Source: a virus. From it: DNA of 57,131 nt. Below are positions 33,784 to 42,702 of this stretch, piece after piece. Every line of letters begins with the position of its first letter. The stretch's first letter is position 1. A program made the translations under genes and the position numbers. The stretch covers positions 1 to 57,131 of IMG/VR virus record IMGVR_UViG_3300010376_000011; one strand, 5' to 3'. The notes under the pieces are model-generated. The model saw only the letters and a program-made list of their open reading frames with translations, had not been told where the DNA came from and did not search any database.

Positions 33784-34677
33784 ATGAAAATCTACTGCGC
33801 CGGAGCCGGAACATTCCCGACGATCACTGAGATGATTGGCGTATTCAGCGGCATTGATGTTTTCAGCAGCTACTTCGACATCAGCCGCCAGCAAGGCAGC
33901 CAAGACATTCTGCCGATGCTGCGCAAGCATGAGCCGCGGTCAGTCGTTTGCGATTCAGGCGCGCACGCTTACTTCTCCGCGATAGGTGGCGCGATCAAGA
34001 GCGCGAGCCCGATCACGCTCGCTGCCAAGCTGCCACCGCCCAAAGAGTATGTCGCAGGCTATGCAGAGTTCATCGTGCGCTCGCTGCATCTTGTCGATGT
34101 GTTCGTCGAGATGGACACAGTGCTCATCCATGGTGAGCGATTCCAGAAATGGCAGCGCGATTGTTTGCTGGAAGCAGTGCGCGGAGATCGCTCGCGCATC
34201 ATGCCGGTCTATCACGCGTGCGAGAAACGAAAGGTCGCGCTCAAGCTGATTGACGAATTCCCGTATGTCGGCATCGAAGGCAAGCGCACGAAGAATCTTT
34301 CGCTCGATGATTACATGCAGATCGTTCACGCTGCCTACAAGAAGAAGTGCAAGGTCCACGCGTTCGCTTCCGTGGACAATGAGTTCCTGACCCGCGTGCC
34401 TTTCTACTCGAGTGATTCATCCAGTTGGAGCATGATTTACCGCAGCGGCGTTTACGTGCAGTTCACAGGGCGCGGCATGACGACGCTGCATCGCTCAGAA
34501 GTGCAGCGGCGATTTCATATCGCGGTCGGCCACGCGCAGTCGCTTGCGAGAGTGACGACAGCGCGCTCGACAGCCTTTCGTTACCGTGCAATGATCCGAA
34601 CTGTAATTGAGCAATATGAGAAGTTTGCGCACTATTTAACAGAGCTATGGAACGCGCGGGGAATAGTCTGGCAGTAG
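33784..34677 (+). CDS. dpdA: DpdA-like DNA-guanine transglycosylase (TGT superfamily)
   Basis: VVCDSGAHAYF, VFVEMD, HAFAS and YSSDSSSWSM motifs as in phage/bacterial DpdA; clustered with folE-queD-queE. Confidence 0.7.
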   Translation: MKIYCAGAGTFPTITEMIGVFSGIDVFSSYFDISRQQGSQDILPMLRKHEPRSVVCDSGAHAYFSAIGGAIKSASPITLAAKLPPPKEYVAGYAEFIVRSLHLVDVFVEMDTVLIHGERFQKWQRDCLLEAVRGDRSRIMPVYHACEKRKVALKLIDEFPYVGIEGKRTKNLSLDDYMQIVHAAYKKKCKVHAFASVDNEFLTRVPFYSSDSSSWSMIYRSGVYVQFTGRGMTTLHRSEVQRRFHIAVGHAQSLARVTTARSTAFRYRAMIRTVIEQYEKFAHYLTELWNARGIVWQ

Positions 34678-35291
34678 GCAATCGGCGTTATCGGATCCTT
34701 CCGCTTGCGCAGATCGTGAAAGCGGACTGGAACTATAAGAAGGAAGACGCTGCGCTGACAAAAAAGCTCGTCGCGAATATCAAGCGCAACGGGCAAGTCG
34801 AGAATGTCCTTGTGCGGCAGTTGAAAGGCGGCCGCTTCGAAATGGTGAACGGCAATCACAGGCACGACGCATTCACTGAGCTCAAGCAGCAGAAAGTCCT
34901 TGTCTGCGATCTTGGCAAGATCAGCAAGGCGGCAGCGATGCGAATCGCGCTTGAGACCAACGAGACAAAATACGAAACGGATTTCGTTCAACTGTCGAAG
35001 CTGCTCAAGGAACTCGGCACAGAGTTCACTGATGACGATCTGCTAGGCACAATGCCGTTCGACTTGCGCGAGCTCCAAGACATTCGCGAGATCACGACCT
35101 TTGAGTGGCCAGAGGGCAGCGGCAAGAAAAGCGCAGGCGGGCAGAGCGCGAACGGCAAAGAGGAAGGAAAGATTCAGATGGTTCTGAACTTCACTTCCAA
35201 AGAGACAAACATCCTCAACGCTTTCTTCACGCGCGCCAACAAGAAGTCTCCCGAAGCTGCAATCATATGGGCAATCCAACACGCGCCATAA
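34647..35291 (+). CDS. ParB N-terminal (ParB/Srx) domain protein, possible DpdB-like partner of DpdA
   Basis: ILPLAQIV..NYKKED..LVANIKRNGQVENVLVRQL..FEMVNGNHRHDAF is the ParBc pattern; overlaps the dpdA 3' end by 31 nt. Confidence 0.7.
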   Translation: MERAGNSLAVGNRRYRILPLAQIVKADWNYKKEDAALTKKLVANIKRNGQVENVLVRQLKGGRFEMVNGNHRHDAFTELKQQKVLVCDLGKISKAAAMRIALETNETKYETDFVQLSKLLKELGTEFTDDDLLGTMPFDLRELQDIREITTFEWPEGSGKKSAGGQSANGKEEGKIQMVLNFTSKETNILNAFFTRANKKSPEAAIIWAIQHAP

Positions 35292-35638
35292 AAGCGAGCA
35301 TCGTCGTTCGCGTCGCGGTGGAAGGTTTTCATCGCTGGCCGAATGCGCCTGACAAGCACGATTACTTGCGCGAGCGACACCGACACCTGTTCGTGATCGA
35401 AGCAGTGAAGCCAGTGACAAGTCTTGATCGCGAAGTCGAGATCATTGAGTTCGGTCGCGAGATTCGACACTTCATCACTCGCAATTCAGGCGCGCCGGCT
35501 GAGTTCGGTCCACTCAGTTGCGAGCAGATTGCAGCGATGCTCGTTCACACGTTTCAGTTGTCGCGCTGCTCGGTGATGGAAGATGGCGAGAACGGAGCTG
35601 AGGTCGTTGTCGATGAAACTGGCCTACCTACCGCTTGA
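35267..35638 (+). CDS. PTPS/QueD-like T-fold protein (divergent paralogue)
   Basis: Internal ATG 35267; VEGFHRWPNAP..RERHRHLFVIEAV..DREVEIIEFGREI..LSCEQIAAML..VMEDGENGAEV parallels the QueD layout, but the CxxxHGH motif is replaced. Confidence 0.45.
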   Translation: MGNPTRAIKASIVVRVAVEGFHRWPNAPDKHDYLRERHRHLFVIEAVKPVTSLDREVEIIEFGREIRHFITRNSGAPAEFGPLSCEQIAAMLVHTFQLSRCSVMEDGENGAEVVVDETGLPTA

Positions 35639-36695
35639 GCCTTATCGCGAGCGTTACACCGAGATGCTTTGCGATTGGACGACTGCGCGCTGGCGTGATC
35701 GGTGCGAAGTGCTCGCGATCTACGCGGGCGATAAGTTCGATGGTGACATTGAGACAGGCGTTGTGCTCGATGCTCATCGCCGCTGCCACTGGGCACTGAC
35801 TCAGATGGCGGCGCTCATCAAAGACTTGAAAGAAGGCGTGAAATATGACGCGATCTACATCGACGATCTTTTTCATCCTGGCTTCGAATCGTTGCCTTAC
35901 ATCTTCGCGCAGCAGAAAGAGCGCGCGCCGAAACTGTTCACGCGCAACTGGGCGCAATCCGTTGACGAAGATGATTTCACTTTTCCAATGCGCAGATGGA
36001 TGAGGCACTACGAAAGATTAGTCGATCAGGTCACGGCAGGAATTTTCTGCGCTTCCACTTGTCATGCTCAAGCGATGCGCATCGCGGGACTCAAAGGCGC
36101 GCAAGTTGTCGGGCTTCCATTCGACAGCGAAGATGTTCGCAGTCGTCGTCGCGGTGCAATCGCGCGCAGCGACAAGCCGCGCGTGATCTTTTCGTCGCGA
36201 TGGGACAAGGAGAAGCAGCCTGACTTCTTCATGCGGGTCGTGCGCGAGTGCGGCGAGCAGTTTGAGTTTCTTGTCTGCACTGGCGCAACGGAGCTCCGCA
36301 GCAATTGGTCTTCGCTGATCGACGATGCTCGCGATCTTGAGCAGGACGGACTGCTGAGGATCCGAACAGGATGCCGCAAGCTGGATTACTACAGCGAGCT
36401 TGCAGGCGCGTCGGTGCAATTCAACTGCGCGCTGCAAGATTACGTCGCATTCACGACACTGGAAGCTTCCGCGTTCGGAGTGCCGACGCTCGCGCCCGCA
36501 TACAAATCCTTTCCAGAAGTTCTGCACAATGATGAGCGGCGCTTATTCGTGCCATGGTCAATCACTGATGCAGTGAGCAAACTGAAAGTGCTCGCTACTA
36601 CCGACGTATTGAATGAATGGGAGATCGCGGCGCCGTCAGTCGAGCATGACAAAACTCTCGACAAGATGTTAGGTTGGATGAAAACGATATGCTGA
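35613..36695 (+). CDS. GT-B fold glycosyltransferase-like protein (GT4-like C-terminal half)
   Basis: Internal ATG 35613; KPRVIFSSRWDKEKQPDFFMRVV..FEFLVCTG..VQFNCALQDYVAFTTLEASAFGVPTLAP resembles the Glycos_transf_1 core (E..fG...lEA...G.P). Confidence 0.6.
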   Translation: MKLAYLPLEPYRERYTEMLCDWTTARWRDRCEVLAIYAGDKFDGDIETGVVLDAHRRCHWALTQMAALIKDLKEGVKYDAIYIDDLFHPGFESLPYIFAQQKERAPKLFTRNWAQSVDEDDFTFPMRRWMRHYERLVDQVTAGIFCASTCHAQAMRIAGLKGAQVVGLPFDSEDVRSRRRGAIARSDKPRVIFSSRWDKEKQPDFFMRVVRECGEQFEFLVCTGATELRSNWSSLIDDARDLEQDGLLRIRTGCRKLDYYSELAGASVQFNCALQDYVAFTTLEASAFGVPTLAPAYKSFPEVLHNDERRLFVPWSITDAVSKLKVLATTDVLNEWEIAAPSVEHDKTLDKMLGWMKTIC

Positions 36696-37132
36696 CCTGC
36701 ACGAAGACTTACATCGACATTCCTTTCGCGCATCGCGCGCACAGACATGATGGACACTGCGCGCTCATTCACGGGCACAATTGGAAATTCGAAATCACCT
36801 TCGCTGCTCCTATCACTGATGAGTGCGGGTTCGTGATGGATTTCGGAAAGCTGCAAAGCTTGAAGGAAGAAATCACTCGCACCTTCGATCACAAGCTTGT
36901 GCTCAATTCCAGTGACCCGCTCGCGCCAGAGCTCGCGCATTTTCTCGTTTCAAAGAAGATCGGCAACACCACGCTTGTGCCTGATTGCTCCTGCGAAGGA
37001 ATCGCGAAGCTGATTTACAAAATGGCTGACCGCATCGCGCGAGAGGAAACACTGGGGCGCGCGCACGTTCAGCGCGTCACCGTATTCGAAGACTCAAAGA
37101 ATCTCGCGACCTATGACGCTCAAGGTGAATGA
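36689..37132 (+). CDS. queD: 6-carboxy-5,6,7,8-tetrahydropterin synthase
   Basis: FAHRAHRHDGHCALIHGHNWKFEITF..GFVMDFGKL..FDHKLVLN..CSCEGIA..VTVFEDS; ATG 36689 (the track starts at TTG 36674). Confidence 0.85.
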   Translation: MLTCTKTYIDIPFAHRAHRHDGHCALIHGHNWKFEITFAAPITDECGFVMDFGKLQSLKEEITRTFDHKLVLNSSDPLAPELAHFLVSKKIGNTTLVPDCSCEGIAKLIYKMADRIAREETLGRAHVQRVTVFEDSKNLATYDAQGE

Positions 37133-37694
37133 AATCTTTTACTCGATTCAGGGCGAAGGCGCGCGCGCGGGACAACCTTCGATCTTCATCCGGCTGAGCG
37201 GGTGCGATCTCACCTGCAACTTTTGCGACACAGAATTTGCGAGCGGCGCAGCGATGGCGCTCGACGCGATCAGAGATCACATCAAGCAGTGGTCATGTCG
37301 CTGGATTGTCTGGACTGGCGGCGAGCCGATGCTGCAACTATGCGATGCAGCGATTGAGTATTTCCGCGAGCTTGGCTACAAGCAGGCCATCGAGAGCAAC
37401 GGCAATCACAAAATACCGCGCGCGATTGACTGGATCGTCGTCAGCCCAAAAGTTGCTGAGCATGTCATGAGAAAAAACTTCCCTGATGGAGTCGATGAAT
37501 TGCGCTACGTAAGGCATTGCGGCCACATGAACGTTCCTGAGCCAGCAGTCGAAGCGCAGCATTACTACCTCTCTCCGATCTTCGACGGCAATACACCTAA
37601 CGAAGCGAACGTCAAGCATTGCCTCAAACTGATACTCGCGAACCCGCAATGGAAACTAAGCCTGCAACTGCACAAGCTCCTGCGCGTTCTGTAA
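37113..37694 (+). CDS. queE: 7-carboxy-7-deazaguanine synthase (radical SAM)
   Basis: [45 protein letters not shown]. Confidence 0.9.
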
Positions 37695-38527
37695 CGTGGC
37701 TTGAGCTCATTGACGAAGTCGATTCGCTTGATCGGCGATGGACCTATTACGGCATCCCGCGCGGCGGCACGATCGTTGCGGGTGTCGCTGCTGCGCGTGG
37801 ATTCAAGATTACTTCGGAGCCGGAGCGCGCTGATATGTTACTCGATGATGTTGTCGATTCAGGAGCGACGCGGAGTAAGTGGCTCGTCAGGTTTCCAGCG
37901 AAAGGATTTCGCGCGCTGTATCAGCGCACCGACAAGTGGCTCGTCTTTCCGTGGGAGAGTTCTTACGCCGCGGCAGCGCAAGAAGTCGTCACGCGGCAAC
38001 TTGAATTGATTGGCGAAGACGCAGCGCGGGAAGGTCTGCGCGATACACCTGAGCGCGTCGTGCGATCATGGCAGGAGCTCTATGCGGGCTACAGGATGAA
38101 GCCGGAAGATGTTTTGAATGCGCACTTCGCGCGCGACGATTACGATCAGATGATTGTCTGTCGCGGCATTCAGTTCTACTCGACCTGCGAGCATCACCTG
38201 CAACCTTTCTTCGGGCGCGCTCATATCGGCTACCTGCCTGACCACTGCGTGGTCGGACTCAGTAAGCTCGCGCGACTCGTTGACGTATTCGCCCGCCGAT
38301 TGCAGATACAGGAACGCCTCACGGAACAGATCGCCGCTGCGCTGCAAACGCACACGCGACCAAAAGGCGTCGGCGTAATCATTGAGGCGCAGCACTTCTG
38401 TATGATGTGTCGCGGCGTGCAGAAACAAACGAGCTCAATGGTGACCAGCGCGCTCAAAGGTTGCTTCCGCGATGCAGCAGTGCGCGCTGAATTTCTGAAC
38501 CTTCTCGCGCAAGGCCAATCAGCTTAG
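37649..38527 (+). CDS. folE: Fusion protein: N-terminal Gpt-like phosphoribosyltransferase domain plus GTP cyclohydrolase I
   Basis: N-terminus [48 protein letters not shown] (Gpt-like); C-terminus [32 protein letters not shown]; ATG 37649 (the track starts at TTG 37619); overlaps queE. Confidence 0.85.
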
Positions 38528-38547
38528 CGTGAAAACACGCTAAGCTG
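38520..38547 (+). terminator. Conserved 28-bp hairpin, copy 4, followed by TTTTCTC
   Basis: Perfect 12-bp stem, AAAA loop; contains the folE stop codon (TAG 38525-38527). Confidence 0.65.
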
Positions 38548-38558
38548 TTTTCTCTGCT

Positions 38559-38587
38559 GCGGGGCTATTTGCGGGGCTATTCGGGGC
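38559..38587. repeat. About 2.5 tandem copies of GCGGGGCTATT(T) just after hairpin copy 4
   Basis: gcggggctattt gcggggctatt cggggc read directly; non-coding. Confidence 0.6.
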
Positions 38588-38609
38588 AAAGTTGGCCTGT
38601 ATTTTATGC

Positions 38610-38637
38610 TTGCGCGCTATTCGCAATTTGCTATACT
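38610..38637 (+). promoter_or_regulatory. Candidate sigma70-type promoter TTGCGC-N16-(TGc)TATACT
   Basis: Hexamers and spacing read directly; extended -10 TG present; host sigma specificity unknown. Confidence 0.3.
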
Positions 38638-38854
38638 TAGTATGGTTCTTTTGATAGCTTAAGTAAGCAGTTTGAGCGAAGCGCGCGGTAGGTAGGATGG
38701 CGCATCTGAAAAGGTGCGATGAATGAAGGGCGCATCTCTGATTCCGAAGCTGATCTTCAATGATCGAAAAAAAGTAGGAAGCGGTGGGTGGCAAACATTT
38801 CGATGATCGCGAAAGTCCAAAGCTGCTGAAATGATTTGAAGCAAAATTGTAGCG

Positions 38855-38889
38855 AAGGGGCGCATTTCTCTTGATGCGCTTTTCCCCTT
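38855..38889 (+). terminator. Terminator-like hairpin GCGCAT-N8-ATGCGC plus TTTT, flanked by AAGGGG/CCCCTT, inside the non-coding region
   Basis: Inverted repeats read directly. Confidence 0.4.
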
Positions 38890-39296
38890 GAAATGAAATT
38901 TCGCAGCCTAGCAAGCTGCTATCCGATTAAGAGATTCGATGCTGAGCGCATTGTTCGTGTCCAAACAAACTGATGGCGTCTCGGAGATTGCACATCGCTC
39001 CCGCGCAGCGCGCGGGTCAGGCCGTTAAATTCCGTAGCAGGAAACGTCTGCTGCCAATTCAAAGATCAAGCGATGGTCCGGTGAACGTATTACGTCACCT
39101 AGCTTCCGATGAGCTCAAGAACAACAATGCCGTGATCATATAGGCCACACCGAAGCTGACCGCATAGGTCGAAGATGAGTAGGTGTAAGCGTGGTCATAC
39201 AGTAAGGAAGTCGAAACGAACGATAGCCACTAAGGTGACTCGTTCGTCTGCGCGACAAGGTCAATCGCGCACTGATGAGACACGACCAACACAACA

Positions 39297-41991: not shown

Positions 41992-42702
41992 ATGCCACAG
42001 AAGGTAATGAAGATACATCCGCTCTGCCGAATGTTCAGTCAGATCGCGCCACTCGGAAAAGACGAGAAGGCCGAAATGGTTGCTGACATTAAGGAGAACG
42101 GAATCAAGGTGCCTCTACTTGTTAACAAGAAGAAGGACACCATCTACGACGGCTATACGCGGTGGGGCATCGCGTATGATCTCAAGCTCGCACCGAAAGA
42201 CATTCCAATGGAAGTCTTTTCGGGCACTGAGGAAGAGATCGAAGCAGAAATCTTGTCCCGCAATCTGTTCCGGCGCCATATGTCGGACAGTGAGCGCGCG
42301 GCACTCGTTTCGAAGATCCTCGGCCCAGTCGCTGAGAAGGAAGCGAAAGAGCGTCAGAGCGCAGCGGGCAGCTTCGGTGACAAGAGCAAAGGCAAGGGCA
42401 CAGGGAAAGGCAAACGGGTTGCTGAGCTCGCGAAGAAGGCGGGCGTCAGTGAGCACAAGATGGCGCAAGCTGAGCGCGCACGTAAGGCCGGAATGATTGA
42501 TGATGTGCTGTCGAAAAAGACCACGCTCCGTAAGGCAAGCGAAAAAGGCAAAGGCGGAAAGCGCAAGCCAGCGAAGGAACTTTCTTTCGCAGATGCGCTC
42601 TACAAGAAGTGGACCGCCTTCGTCAATCGCATTGACCATCCGAAGCGACGCCAAGCATTGGAACTGATCGCTGGCTGGTGCACAGGAAAGAAGCCCGCGT
42701 AA
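41992..42702 (+). CDS. ParB-like nuclease-domain protein with a C-terminal HTH region
   Basis: IHPLCRMF..EMVADIKENGIKVPLLV....IYDGYTRWGIAYDL is the ParBc pattern; AGAAGGAG RBS. Confidence 0.8.
   Translation: MPQKVMKIHPLCRMFSQIAPLGKDEKAEMVADIKENGIKVPLLVNKKKDTIYDGYTRWGIAYDLKLAPKDIPMEVFSGTEEEIEAEILSRNLFRRHMSDSERAALVSKILGPVAEKEAKERQSAAGSFGDKSKGKGTGKGKRVAELAKKAGVSEHKMAQAERARKAGMIDDVLSKKTTLRKASEKGKGGKRKPAKELSFADALYKKWTAFVNRIDHPKRRQALELIAGWCTGKKPA

Follow-up and report, generated by a model that had tools for sequence, protein, structure and literature searches.

A virus-restricted GT-B glycosyltransferase family associated with the DpdL branch of 7-deazaguanine DNA modification is a candidate for sugar decoration of a guanine analogue in phage DNA

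The viral DNA analysed here, IMG/VR virus record IMGVR_UViG_3300010376_000011 (positions 1 to 57,131, in the following called the window), is a 57-kb myovirus-like contig on which terminase, portal, major head, sheath and baseplate genes precede those for a helicase, Erf and an exonuclease. Between the tail and the replication modules lies a block of co-directional, overlapping genes (33784-38527) in the order DpdA, ParB-like (DpdB-like), DpdL, a glycosyltransferase-like protein (hereafter GT), QueD, QueE and FolE, which is closed by a terminator-like hairpin (Table 1). The GT, which an original prediction made from the letters of the sequence had put forward as a candidate sugar decorator of a modified base, is the subject of this study. 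A megablast search with the operon found no match among 50,697 phage records; the window is without a close cultured relative.

At the GT locus, the open reading frame (ORF) call extends over 35583-36695 (370 amino acids, aa), while the ATG at 35613 leads to a protein of 360 aa which starts with MKLAYLPLEPY. The latter start is also that of the JGI gene call P0001, a protein of 360 aa with 100% identity, agrees with the N-termini of all homologues, and is preceded by GAGG 9 nt upstream. The 360-aa ORF of the original prediction is thus real, as is its overlap with both neighbours, which amounts to 26 nt with the DpdL ORF (stop codon 35636-35638) and, counted from the GT stop codon (36693-36695), to 7 nt or 22 nt with QueD depending on whether the latter starts at ATG 36689 or TTG 36674. 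The peptides KPRVIFSSRWDKEKQPDFF, FEFLVCTG and VAFTTLEASAFGVPTLAP, which had been read as a C-terminal GT-B/GT4 signature, are all present in the translation.

An AlphaFold2 (AF2) model of the GT, calculated with 44 homologues in the input, reached a pLDDT of 95.4 and a pTM of 0.92. A Foldseek search of the PDB with this model gave 610 matches at E ≤ 1e-3, the best 50 of which are all GT-B enzymes, mostly of family GT4, with MshA, sucrose-phosphate synthase (SPS), SenB, BshA, PimA and GlgM as leaders (E 2e-14 to 1e-12) and template modelling (TM) scores against GT4 structures of 0.66-0.75 (0.73-0.75 at E ~2e-14). On the sequence level, the Pfam families Glyco_trans_1_4, Glycos_transf_1 and Glyco_trans_1_2 match the C-terminal half of the protein, all three below their gathering thresholds (E 1e-4 to 6e-3), many homologues have precomputed matches to PF00534 or PF13692, and the family profile reaches MshA at E 5e-4. 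R196 and K201, located in the motif SSRxDxEKQP, align to the phosphate-binding Arg/Lys of MshA and E284 to its conserved Glu; in the family alignment R196, E200, K201, P203, K256, Y259 and Q275 are invariant and D276 and E284 nearly so (E284 at least 90%), with D276-x7-E284 as a variant that replaces EX7E. With sequence evidence that is weak by itself and structural evidence that is strong, the GT is predicted with high confidence to possess a GT-B fold with a GT4-like donor site, so that AF2 and Foldseek place it where the original prediction had placed it and not in a non-GT fold.

The acceptor is in GT-B enzymes normally bound by the N-terminal domain. In the GT family, this domain is conserved to the same degree as the C-terminal domain, with E9, Y11, R14, Y15, T16, W22, D53, R57, Q64, D85, F87, Q115, D118, D121, F122, W129, R131 and E134 being invariant, and the stretch LEPYxERYT (invariant E9-P-Y11-x-E-R14-Y15-T16) replaces the canonical GT4 Gly-rich loop after strand 1. 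Because of this high conservation and the replaced loop, we infer one specific acceptor across the family, together with a non-canonical catalytic environment.

The nature of this acceptor is suggested by the genes with which the GT is associated. The original prediction had described the GT gene as embedded between two QueD-type genes, which holds for the downstream gene, a true QueD of the PTPS family with CxxxHGH, while the upstream gene is DpdL and not a second QueD: in place of the QueD motif it displays LRERHRHLF, which corresponds to the DpdL signature LxxxHRHxF. The window protein aligns with DpdL of phage ACP17 and others, with H22, H38, R39, H40, F42, S84-C85-E86 and E105-D106 invariant, and lacks the catalytic Cys of PTPS and QueD. 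DpdL, a QueD paralogue, has been proposed for the Cellulophaga phage phiST to decarboxylate 7-carboxy-7-deazaguanine (CDG) to 7-deazaguanine (dDG) and is predicted to act on the free base (Cui et al., 2023). The genomic context expected of DpdL is found in the window operon, with DpdA, FolE, QueD and QueE present and QueC absent, and the combination of a DpdA-family transglycosylase (PHROG 887) with the CDG synthesis genes QueD, QueE and FolE characterizes the block as a deazaguanine cluster. For E. coli QueC, no tblastn match was obtained in the window or in 92 loci, and no phmmer match in 80 further loci. Two candidates for a hidden QueC were rejected, as the PP-loop protein of the T4-like loci belongs to PF01171 and a 177-aa protein of the Xanthomonas phage X1 and the Burkholderia phage BCSR5 is PAPS-reductase-like. 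The latter, a PAPS-reductase-family PP-loop protein, is encoded inside the cluster in both phages (L002 4335-4868 and L003 4302-4775, respectively), and its similarity to QueC is below detection.

Homologues of the GT are numerous and of viral origin. A first homologue search gave 4,498 matches, the best 120 of which are, besides the window's own P0001 (100%), metagenomic sequences of 42-50% identity; a hidden Markov model (HMM) search of 1.84 billion representatives found 459 GT clusters at E ≤ 1e-30 and 911 at E ≤ 1e-10, and at least 584 GT copies are present in IMG/VR. Among 185,579 species-representative genomes, only 6 possess the GT, all on phage-like contigs of metagenome-assembled genomes with DpdL and/or a T4-like DNA polymerase, and in this search the family was not found in isolate bacterial genomes. 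The GT family is essentially viral. Among isolates, the nearest homologue belongs to a phage of Synechococcus elongatus PCC 7942, the homologue of BUCT-ZZ01 shows 40% identity and a distant clade with 22-26% identity comprises X1/BUDD, BCSR5, ACP17, the Sinorhizobium phage Phosso and the PA5oct-like Wroclawviruses, with BFVD entries of BCSR5 length and of ACP17 reaching TM scores of 0.79-0.88 to the GT model. Every cultured phage with a GT homologue carries it inside a deazaguanine cluster. The original prediction had named homologues mainly outside such clusters, for example in surface-polysaccharide loci, as an outcome that would speak against it; the homologues are, on the contrary, essentially always located in QueC-less deazaguanine clusters.

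A DpdL HMM detected DpdL in 88 of 93 GT-bearing sources, the 5 misses being contigs cut close to the GT, and plain tblastn detected FolE in 59, QueE in 51 and QueD in 42 of 83 GT loci. In the opposite direction, the 80 IMG/VR loci that come closest to the window DpdL include 47 which encode the GT and none (0/80) which encodes QueC, and among cultured DpdL phages the GT was undetected in the phiST group, the Faecalibacterium phage Roos, the Chryseobacterium phage MA9V-3, RHph_I1_18 and two Vibrio phages. The DNA of phiST, from which the GT is absent, contains plain dDG (Cui et al., 2023). Since the GT implies DpdL, while DpdL in many loci occurs without the GT and phiST has dDG without it, the GT is most simply read as an optional step that follows DpdL.

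The arrangement of the genes varies considerably, as DpdL-GT-DpdA, DpdL-GT-DpdA3, DpdA3-GT-DpdL, GT-c13-DpdL (with c13 between the two genes) and DpdL-GT-QueD-QueE-FolE are all found, start/stop overlaps of the GT with DpdL or DpdA3 are frequent, and the module occurs with two DpdA types on the unrelated backbones of ACP17, PA5oct-like phages, X1, BCSR5, Phosso and BUCT-ZZ01. These varying orders over unrelated backbones and two DpdA types argue for functional linkage rather than inherited synteny. The survey of co-occurrence with dpdA that the original prediction had called for thus finds the GT beside DpdA or DpdA3 across unrelated phages. In ACP17 (L090, 5727-8410), the GT homologue ASD50404, annotated as hypothetical, is located between DpdL and ASD50403, a protein regarded as DpdA3-like from its position, its length of 424 aa and the lack of a Pfam match, and not from PHROG or HMM assignments.

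Among the remaining genes of the operon, DpdA has no match in Pfam and NCBIfam, and the same DpdA type adjoins the GT in two further GT loci (L005 and L037) and in many DpdL-anchored loci. The ParB-like gene overlaps DpdA directly downstream, and the DpdA-ParB pair is encountered again in L005 and L037. In bacteria, DpdA depends for its activity on DpdB, an ATPase of the ParB superfamily (PMC10164549); by analogy, the ParB-like protein is a probable DpdB counterpart that would aid DpdA. The N-terminal extension of FolE (37619-37978) contains a motif resembling the phosphoribosyl pyrophosphate (PRPP) loop and the motif WLVFPWE, both of which are common to stand-alone phosphoribosyltransferases (PRTases) of about a dozen related clusters, including those of BUCT-ZZ01, PAC2 and T4-like loci. 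Pfam is silent on the extension, and only two short collinear motifs match a phage PRTase; if it had such a function, the extension might recycle the guanine released by DpdA into GTP for FolE.

Table 1. Genes and features of the deazaguanine operon of the window
Feature	Position	Strand	Supporting matches and remarks
DpdA-type DNA-guanine transglycosylase, 297 aa	33784..34677	+	PHROG 887 'queuine tRNA-ribosyltransferase' E 6e-21
ParB-like protein, probable DpdB ATPase analogue	34647..35291	+	PHROG 723 2e-21; Pfam ParB_N 2.7e-5, sub-threshold
DpdL, QueD paralogue, proposed CDG decarboxylase	35267..35638	+	LRERHRHLF; PHROG 17812 3e-21; DpdL HMM E 9e-31
GT-B/GT4-like glycosyltransferase (GT), 360 aa	35613..36695	+	Fold model, Foldseek, donor-site residues
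QueD, 6-carboxy-tetrahydropterin synthase	36674..37132, start possibly ATG 36689	+	Pfam PTPS 2.4e-25; PHROG 2389 3e-30; CxxxHGH
QueE, 7-carboxy-7-deazaguanine synthase, radical SAM	37113..37694	+	PHROG 2076 8e-32; Pfam Radical_SAM 5e-5 and Fer4_12 1e-3, both sub-threshold
FolE, GTP cyclohydrolase I, ~110-aa N-terminal extension	37619..38527	+	Pfam GTP_cyclohydroI 7e-71 (residues 121-296); NCBIfam FolE 1.6e-75
Intrinsic-terminator-like hairpin	38520..38547	+	12-bp stem with 7 G-C pairs, 4-nt loop, T-run; at the FolE stop codon; consensus match only

Taken with these associations, the GT is, with moderate confidence, a candidate for a dedicated nucleotide-sugar-dependent tailoring enzyme of the QueC-less DpdL branch which glycosylates 7-deazaguanine, most likely in DNA. 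FolE, QueD and QueE would, according to their established family functions, convert GTP into CDG, which would lose its carboxyl group by the proposed action of DpdL (Cui et al., 2023) to yield 7-deazaguanine, for which, as judged by homology, DpdA with its ParB-like partner would exchange guanine in the phage DNA. The GT would then transfer a sugar from a host nucleotide sugar to 7-deazaguanine most likely already present in DNA, where the added bulk might act against restriction and modification-sensing nucleases. That 7-deazaguanine is the likely acceptor follows from DpdL being the partner gene, and a DNA-level acceptor is favoured because the GT is often translationally coupled to DpdA/DpdA3 and because the bacterial DpdC provides a precedent, as it acts on DNA after DpdA/DpdB (PMC10164549). 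The DNA of PA5oct, a member of a GT-bearing lineage, resists several restriction enzymes, which the authors of that work interpreted as a modification of G within a GA and/or GG motif. The role of sugar decorator of a deazaguanine, which the original prediction had suggested on account of gene placement, is therefore supported by the fold and by the cluster-bound homologues, and the GT remains a candidate for it.

Several observations weigh against this assignment. 7-Deazaguanine has no hydroxyl or aminomethyl handle, and glycosylation would have to occur at N2, at O6, at a ring carbon (C7) or at the carboxyl group of CDG, for none of which we know of a precedent in DNA; lacking an obvious hydroxyl, the chemistry is less trivial than the analogies with T4 and queuosine suggest. 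Family GT4 consists typically of retaining O-glycosyltransferases, the structures closest to the GT belong to enzymes that glycosylate small molecules and not DNA, and the T4 alpha- and beta-glucosyltransferases are outside the best 50 PDB or BFVD matches. The protein also misses the Pfam gathering scores of Glycos_transf_1 and Glyco_trans_1_4 (20.4 vs 26.4 bits and 23.1 vs 27 bits), the decarboxylase activity of DpdL is itself a proposal from the literature, and the window is without nucleotide-sugar enzyme genes, so that its GT would depend on nucleotide sugars of the host. The isoelectric point of the family (median 5.6-6.0) shows no DNA-binding surface either; it was discarded as a clue to DNA binding, as DpdA3 and the DNA polymerase are as acidic as the GT family.

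A chemical solution to the missing hydroxyl would be a nucleobase C-glycosyltransferase, which forms a C-C bond between a sugar and C7 of 7-deazaguanine in the major groove, possibly coupled to decarboxylation. The decarboxylation by DpdL would expose C7 as an electron-rich pyrrole carbon, and in T4-like phages a second GT-B protein might extend the sugar using phage-made GDP-deoxyhexose or ADP-heptose-type donors. We consider this specific version doubtful.

As the main alternative, glycosylation could take place before insertion, on a free pathway molecule such as 7-deazaguanine, CDG or a nucleotide form; the original prediction had also allowed for modification of a pathway intermediate. 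DpdA would then insert the glycosylated base, comparable to the insertion of the bulky queuine by eukaryotic tRNA-guanine transglycosylase (TGT), or the glycoside would be a soluble end, storage or detoxified product. The nearest structures are indeed GT4 enzymes whose acceptors are small and often anionic (MshA, BshA, SenB, SPS and GlgM), the pocket of the N-terminal domain contains many conserved polar and aromatic residues, as would suit the recognition of a small heterocycle, and the pteridine glycosyltransferases, GT-B proteins of 359 aa with GT4 templates, glycosylate a GTP-derived heterocycle. N2-glycosylated 7-deazaguanine natural products exist (dapiramicin, huimycin), which we count on this side. 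The tightest and commonest neighbour of the GT, moreover, is DpdL, a predicted free-base enzyme (Cui et al., 2023). However, the GT is equally often translationally coupled to the DNA-acting DpdA/DpdA3, the DpdA pocket would have to fit a glycosylated base and there is no sign of a transporter or of another sink that would take up a soluble product, so that we hold an action on the free molecule to be possible, if on the unlikely side. The same tight coupling to DpdL and DpdA could also reflect an accessory role of the GT-like protein in making or inserting plain dDG, either by forming a short-lived glycosyl intermediate or by serving one of the two enzymes as a structural partner, with no sugar in the final DNA. 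In this sense can be read that dpdL and dpdA of ACP17, without the intervening GT-like gene, gave no dDG in E. coli (Cui et al., 2023), but the phiST pair failed in the same assay although phiST has dDG without a GT homologue, the GT is missing from 33 of 80 DpdL loci, and the fully conserved nucleoside diphosphate (NDP)-sugar site and the co-located nucleotide-sugar genes argue for true sugar transfer, which renders an accessory role improbable.

The co-location of FolE, a PTPS-family T-fold protein and a 360-aa GT4-like glycosyltransferase is further reminiscent of a pterin branch, in which FolE, DpdL and the GT would produce a glycosylated pterin, as in the case of the cyanobacterial biopterin glucoside, independently of DNA modification; the pteridine glycosyltransferases share size and fold with the GT, and its closest isolate homologue comes, as mentioned, from a phage of a Synechococcus. 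Such a pathway appears very improbable, as DpdL lacks the catalytic Cys of PTPS/QueD, no sepiapterin-reductase-like gene was seen and the GT is always accompanied by QueE and a DpdA, both of which a pterin pathway does not need. With the GT profile, no PDB chain named pteridine glycosyltransferase was found at E ≤ 1 among the chain sequences, a result which is no test of homology, since the presence of such a structure in the library is uncertain. Finally, the GT might merely travel with the cluster and address a target unrelated to deazaguanine, for instance hydroxymethyl-pyrimidines of DNA, a protein of the virion or a component of the host envelope. Phage GT-B and GT-A enzymes for glycans on 5-hydroxymethylcytosine (5hmC) and for host or virion glycosylation are common, and the automatic JGI label of some homologues reads 'glycosyltransferase involved in cell wall biosynthesis'. 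Against this stand the presence of DpdL in about 100% of assessable cases on unrelated backbones and in rearranged orders, the absence of the family from isolate bacterial genomes and an N-terminal domain which, unlike that of polysaccharide glycosyltransferases, is highly conserved; there is little to be said for an unrelated target.

Compared with characterized enzymes, the GT resembles the GT4 small-acceptor enzymes MshA, BshA, SenB, PimA and SPS in the two-Rossmann GT-B fold, in size and in the Arg/Lys pair and Glu of the C-terminal domain. It differs from them in an identity of 11-16% only, sub-threshold Pfam matches, the replaced Gly-rich loop, D-x7-E for EX7E, its restriction to viruses and its embedding in a nucleobase pathway. 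The window shares the core genes FolE, QueD, QueE, DpdA, the ParB-like partner and DpdL with the phage deazaguanine systems (DpdA1-4, DpdL, DpdM and DpdN; Hutinet et al., 2019; Cui et al., 2023) and with bacterial DpdA/DpdB/DpdC, and these follow the same logic of a base-exchange enzyme combined with a tailoring enzyme that diversifies the 7-position, while none of the deazaguanine DNA systems described in the literature examined possesses a glycosyltransferase. The eight known deazaguanines of DNA carry H, COOH, CN, amide, amidine, aminomethyl, methylaminomethyl or formylaminomethyl, but never a sugar. Glycosyltransferases for DNA of the T4 type and of 5hmC/5-hydroxycytosine (5hC) phages are, as the GT, phage-encoded, NDP-sugar-dependent and clustered with base-modification genes, and such systems sometimes hold several glycosyltransferases and sugar-nucleotide enzymes which build DNA glycans. 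These enzymes act on hydroxyls of modified pyrimidines, whereas the GT would have to act on a purine analogue that lacks a hydroxyl, and by the best 50 PDB and BFVD matches the GT does not belong to the T4-type families GT63/GT72. A hydroxymethylase gene was not noted among the annotated ORFs of the window, most of those outside the operon not having been scanned with profile libraries.

The vertebrate tRNA queuosine glycosyltransferases QTMAN/GTDC1 and QTGAL/B3GNTL1 add a sugar to a TGT-inserted 7-deazaguanine derivative in a nucleic acid, and GTDC1 is a GT-B enzyme of the GT4 type. The sugar is attached by these enzymes to the cyclopentenediol hydroxyl of tRNA queuosine, while in the window a queuosine side chain is not possible because QueC, QueF, QueA and QueG are absent and the pathway stops at CDG/7-deazaguanine; DUF3524, the N-terminal domain of GTDC1, has no Pfam match in the GT at E ≤ 0.1, which places the GT outside the QTMAN/GTDC1 group. 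The pteridine glycosyltransferases (BGluT and PGTs of cyanobacteria and Chlorobium), which are set beside the GT by description only, are cellular enzymes which glycosylate a side-chain hydroxyl of tetrahydrobiopterin, a 2-amino-4-oxo heterocycle derived from GTP via FolE and a PTPS-family enzyme.

In T4-like relatives, nucleotide-sugar genes are interspersed among those of the deazaguanine cluster. The GT is directly adjoined in these phages by DpdL (21 loci), a GDP-mannose 4,6-dehydratase (20 loci; Pfam 1e-110), an RfaE-domain-II-like nucleotidyltransferase (16 loci; NCBIfam 1e-24, below cutoff) and an IMPDH/GMP-reductase-family protein (12 loci; Pfam 1e-67), and a second, weakly GT1-like GT-B protein of ~445 aa (family c12) is encoded in 27 loci. 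This gene content suggests that the nucleotide sugar is possibly made by the phage in T4-like relatives, which would have their own supply of unusual nucleotide sugars for, possibly, a two-sugar glycan. The c12 protein was rejected as a close paralogue of the GT, as only the RW(D/E)xxKxP donor motif is held in common (BLASTP E 0.004). In the T4-like IMG/VR loci L004-L083 (e.g. L006 10001-12200, L013, L010 and L017), the GT is also flanked by an APS-kinase-like/nucleotidyltransferase fusion and a HIT protein. The IMPDH/GMP-reductase-family gene is located immediately downstream of the GT in L008, L010, L032, L085 and others of the 12 loci. The GMP-reductase homologues ToyE and TubD deaminate 7-deazaguanine nucleotides in toyocamycin and tubercidin biosynthesis; by analogy, a nucleotide-level branch to other deazapurines is conceivable in these 12 loci.

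Sugar decoration of phage DNA has so far been known on modified pyrimidines only, on which the known DNA glycosyltransferases act, while 7-deazaguanines of DNA carry only small substituents and the known glycosylation of a deazaguanine is that of queuosine in tRNA. The literature searched contained no description of a glycosylated 7-deazaguanine in DNA, in agreement with the original prediction, and no paper that gives a glycosyltransferase in deazaguanine DNA clusters a role. From a widespread GT family that is confined to viruses and tied to the DpdL branch, a new class of hypermodified DNA is predicted in which a guanine analogue carries the decoration, and phages with the GT probably carry a yet-undescribed sugar-decorated modified guanine. 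This would bear on the modified G of the PA5oct-like jumbo phages, a target of END nucleases, and make the GT a possible missing component in the failed reconstitution with the ACP17 genes (Cui et al., 2023). As cultured carriers of the GT exist (PA5oct, ACP17, BUCT-ZZ01, X1/BUDD, BCSR5 and Phosso), the prediction is directly testable, and the GT might serve as a reagent for the enzymatic glycosylation of 7-deaza-dG DNA, which is easily made by PCR. If the C-glycosyl version were true, neither a C-glycosylated base nor a sugar-bearing purine analogue would have had a precedent in natural DNA, and the new base would be widespread among T4-like phages of aquatic origin and among jumbo phages that infect Pseudomonas, Xanthomonas, Burkholderia and Sinorhizobium.

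A search for domain fusions among 150 GT representatives yielded no informative case, as P0127 has a low-complexity tail and P0246 a putative intein. Inteins usually sit in essential active-site motifs. In P0246, a GT homologue of 726 aa, the intein-like insertion of ~300 residues (CLGGNT...HNFVLWNGMLTGN), as read by eye, is located just before the ALQD-x7-E donor motif. Past the terminator-like hairpin of the window, ~770 bp (38528-39296) of slightly lower G+C are without a convincing plus-strand ORF and contain a 124-aa ORF on the minus strand only, so that this may be a regulatory or module-boundary region. A second ParB-like protein is encoded in the replication module at 41992-42702 (PHROG 4715, 5e-12), 3.5 kb downstream of the operon.

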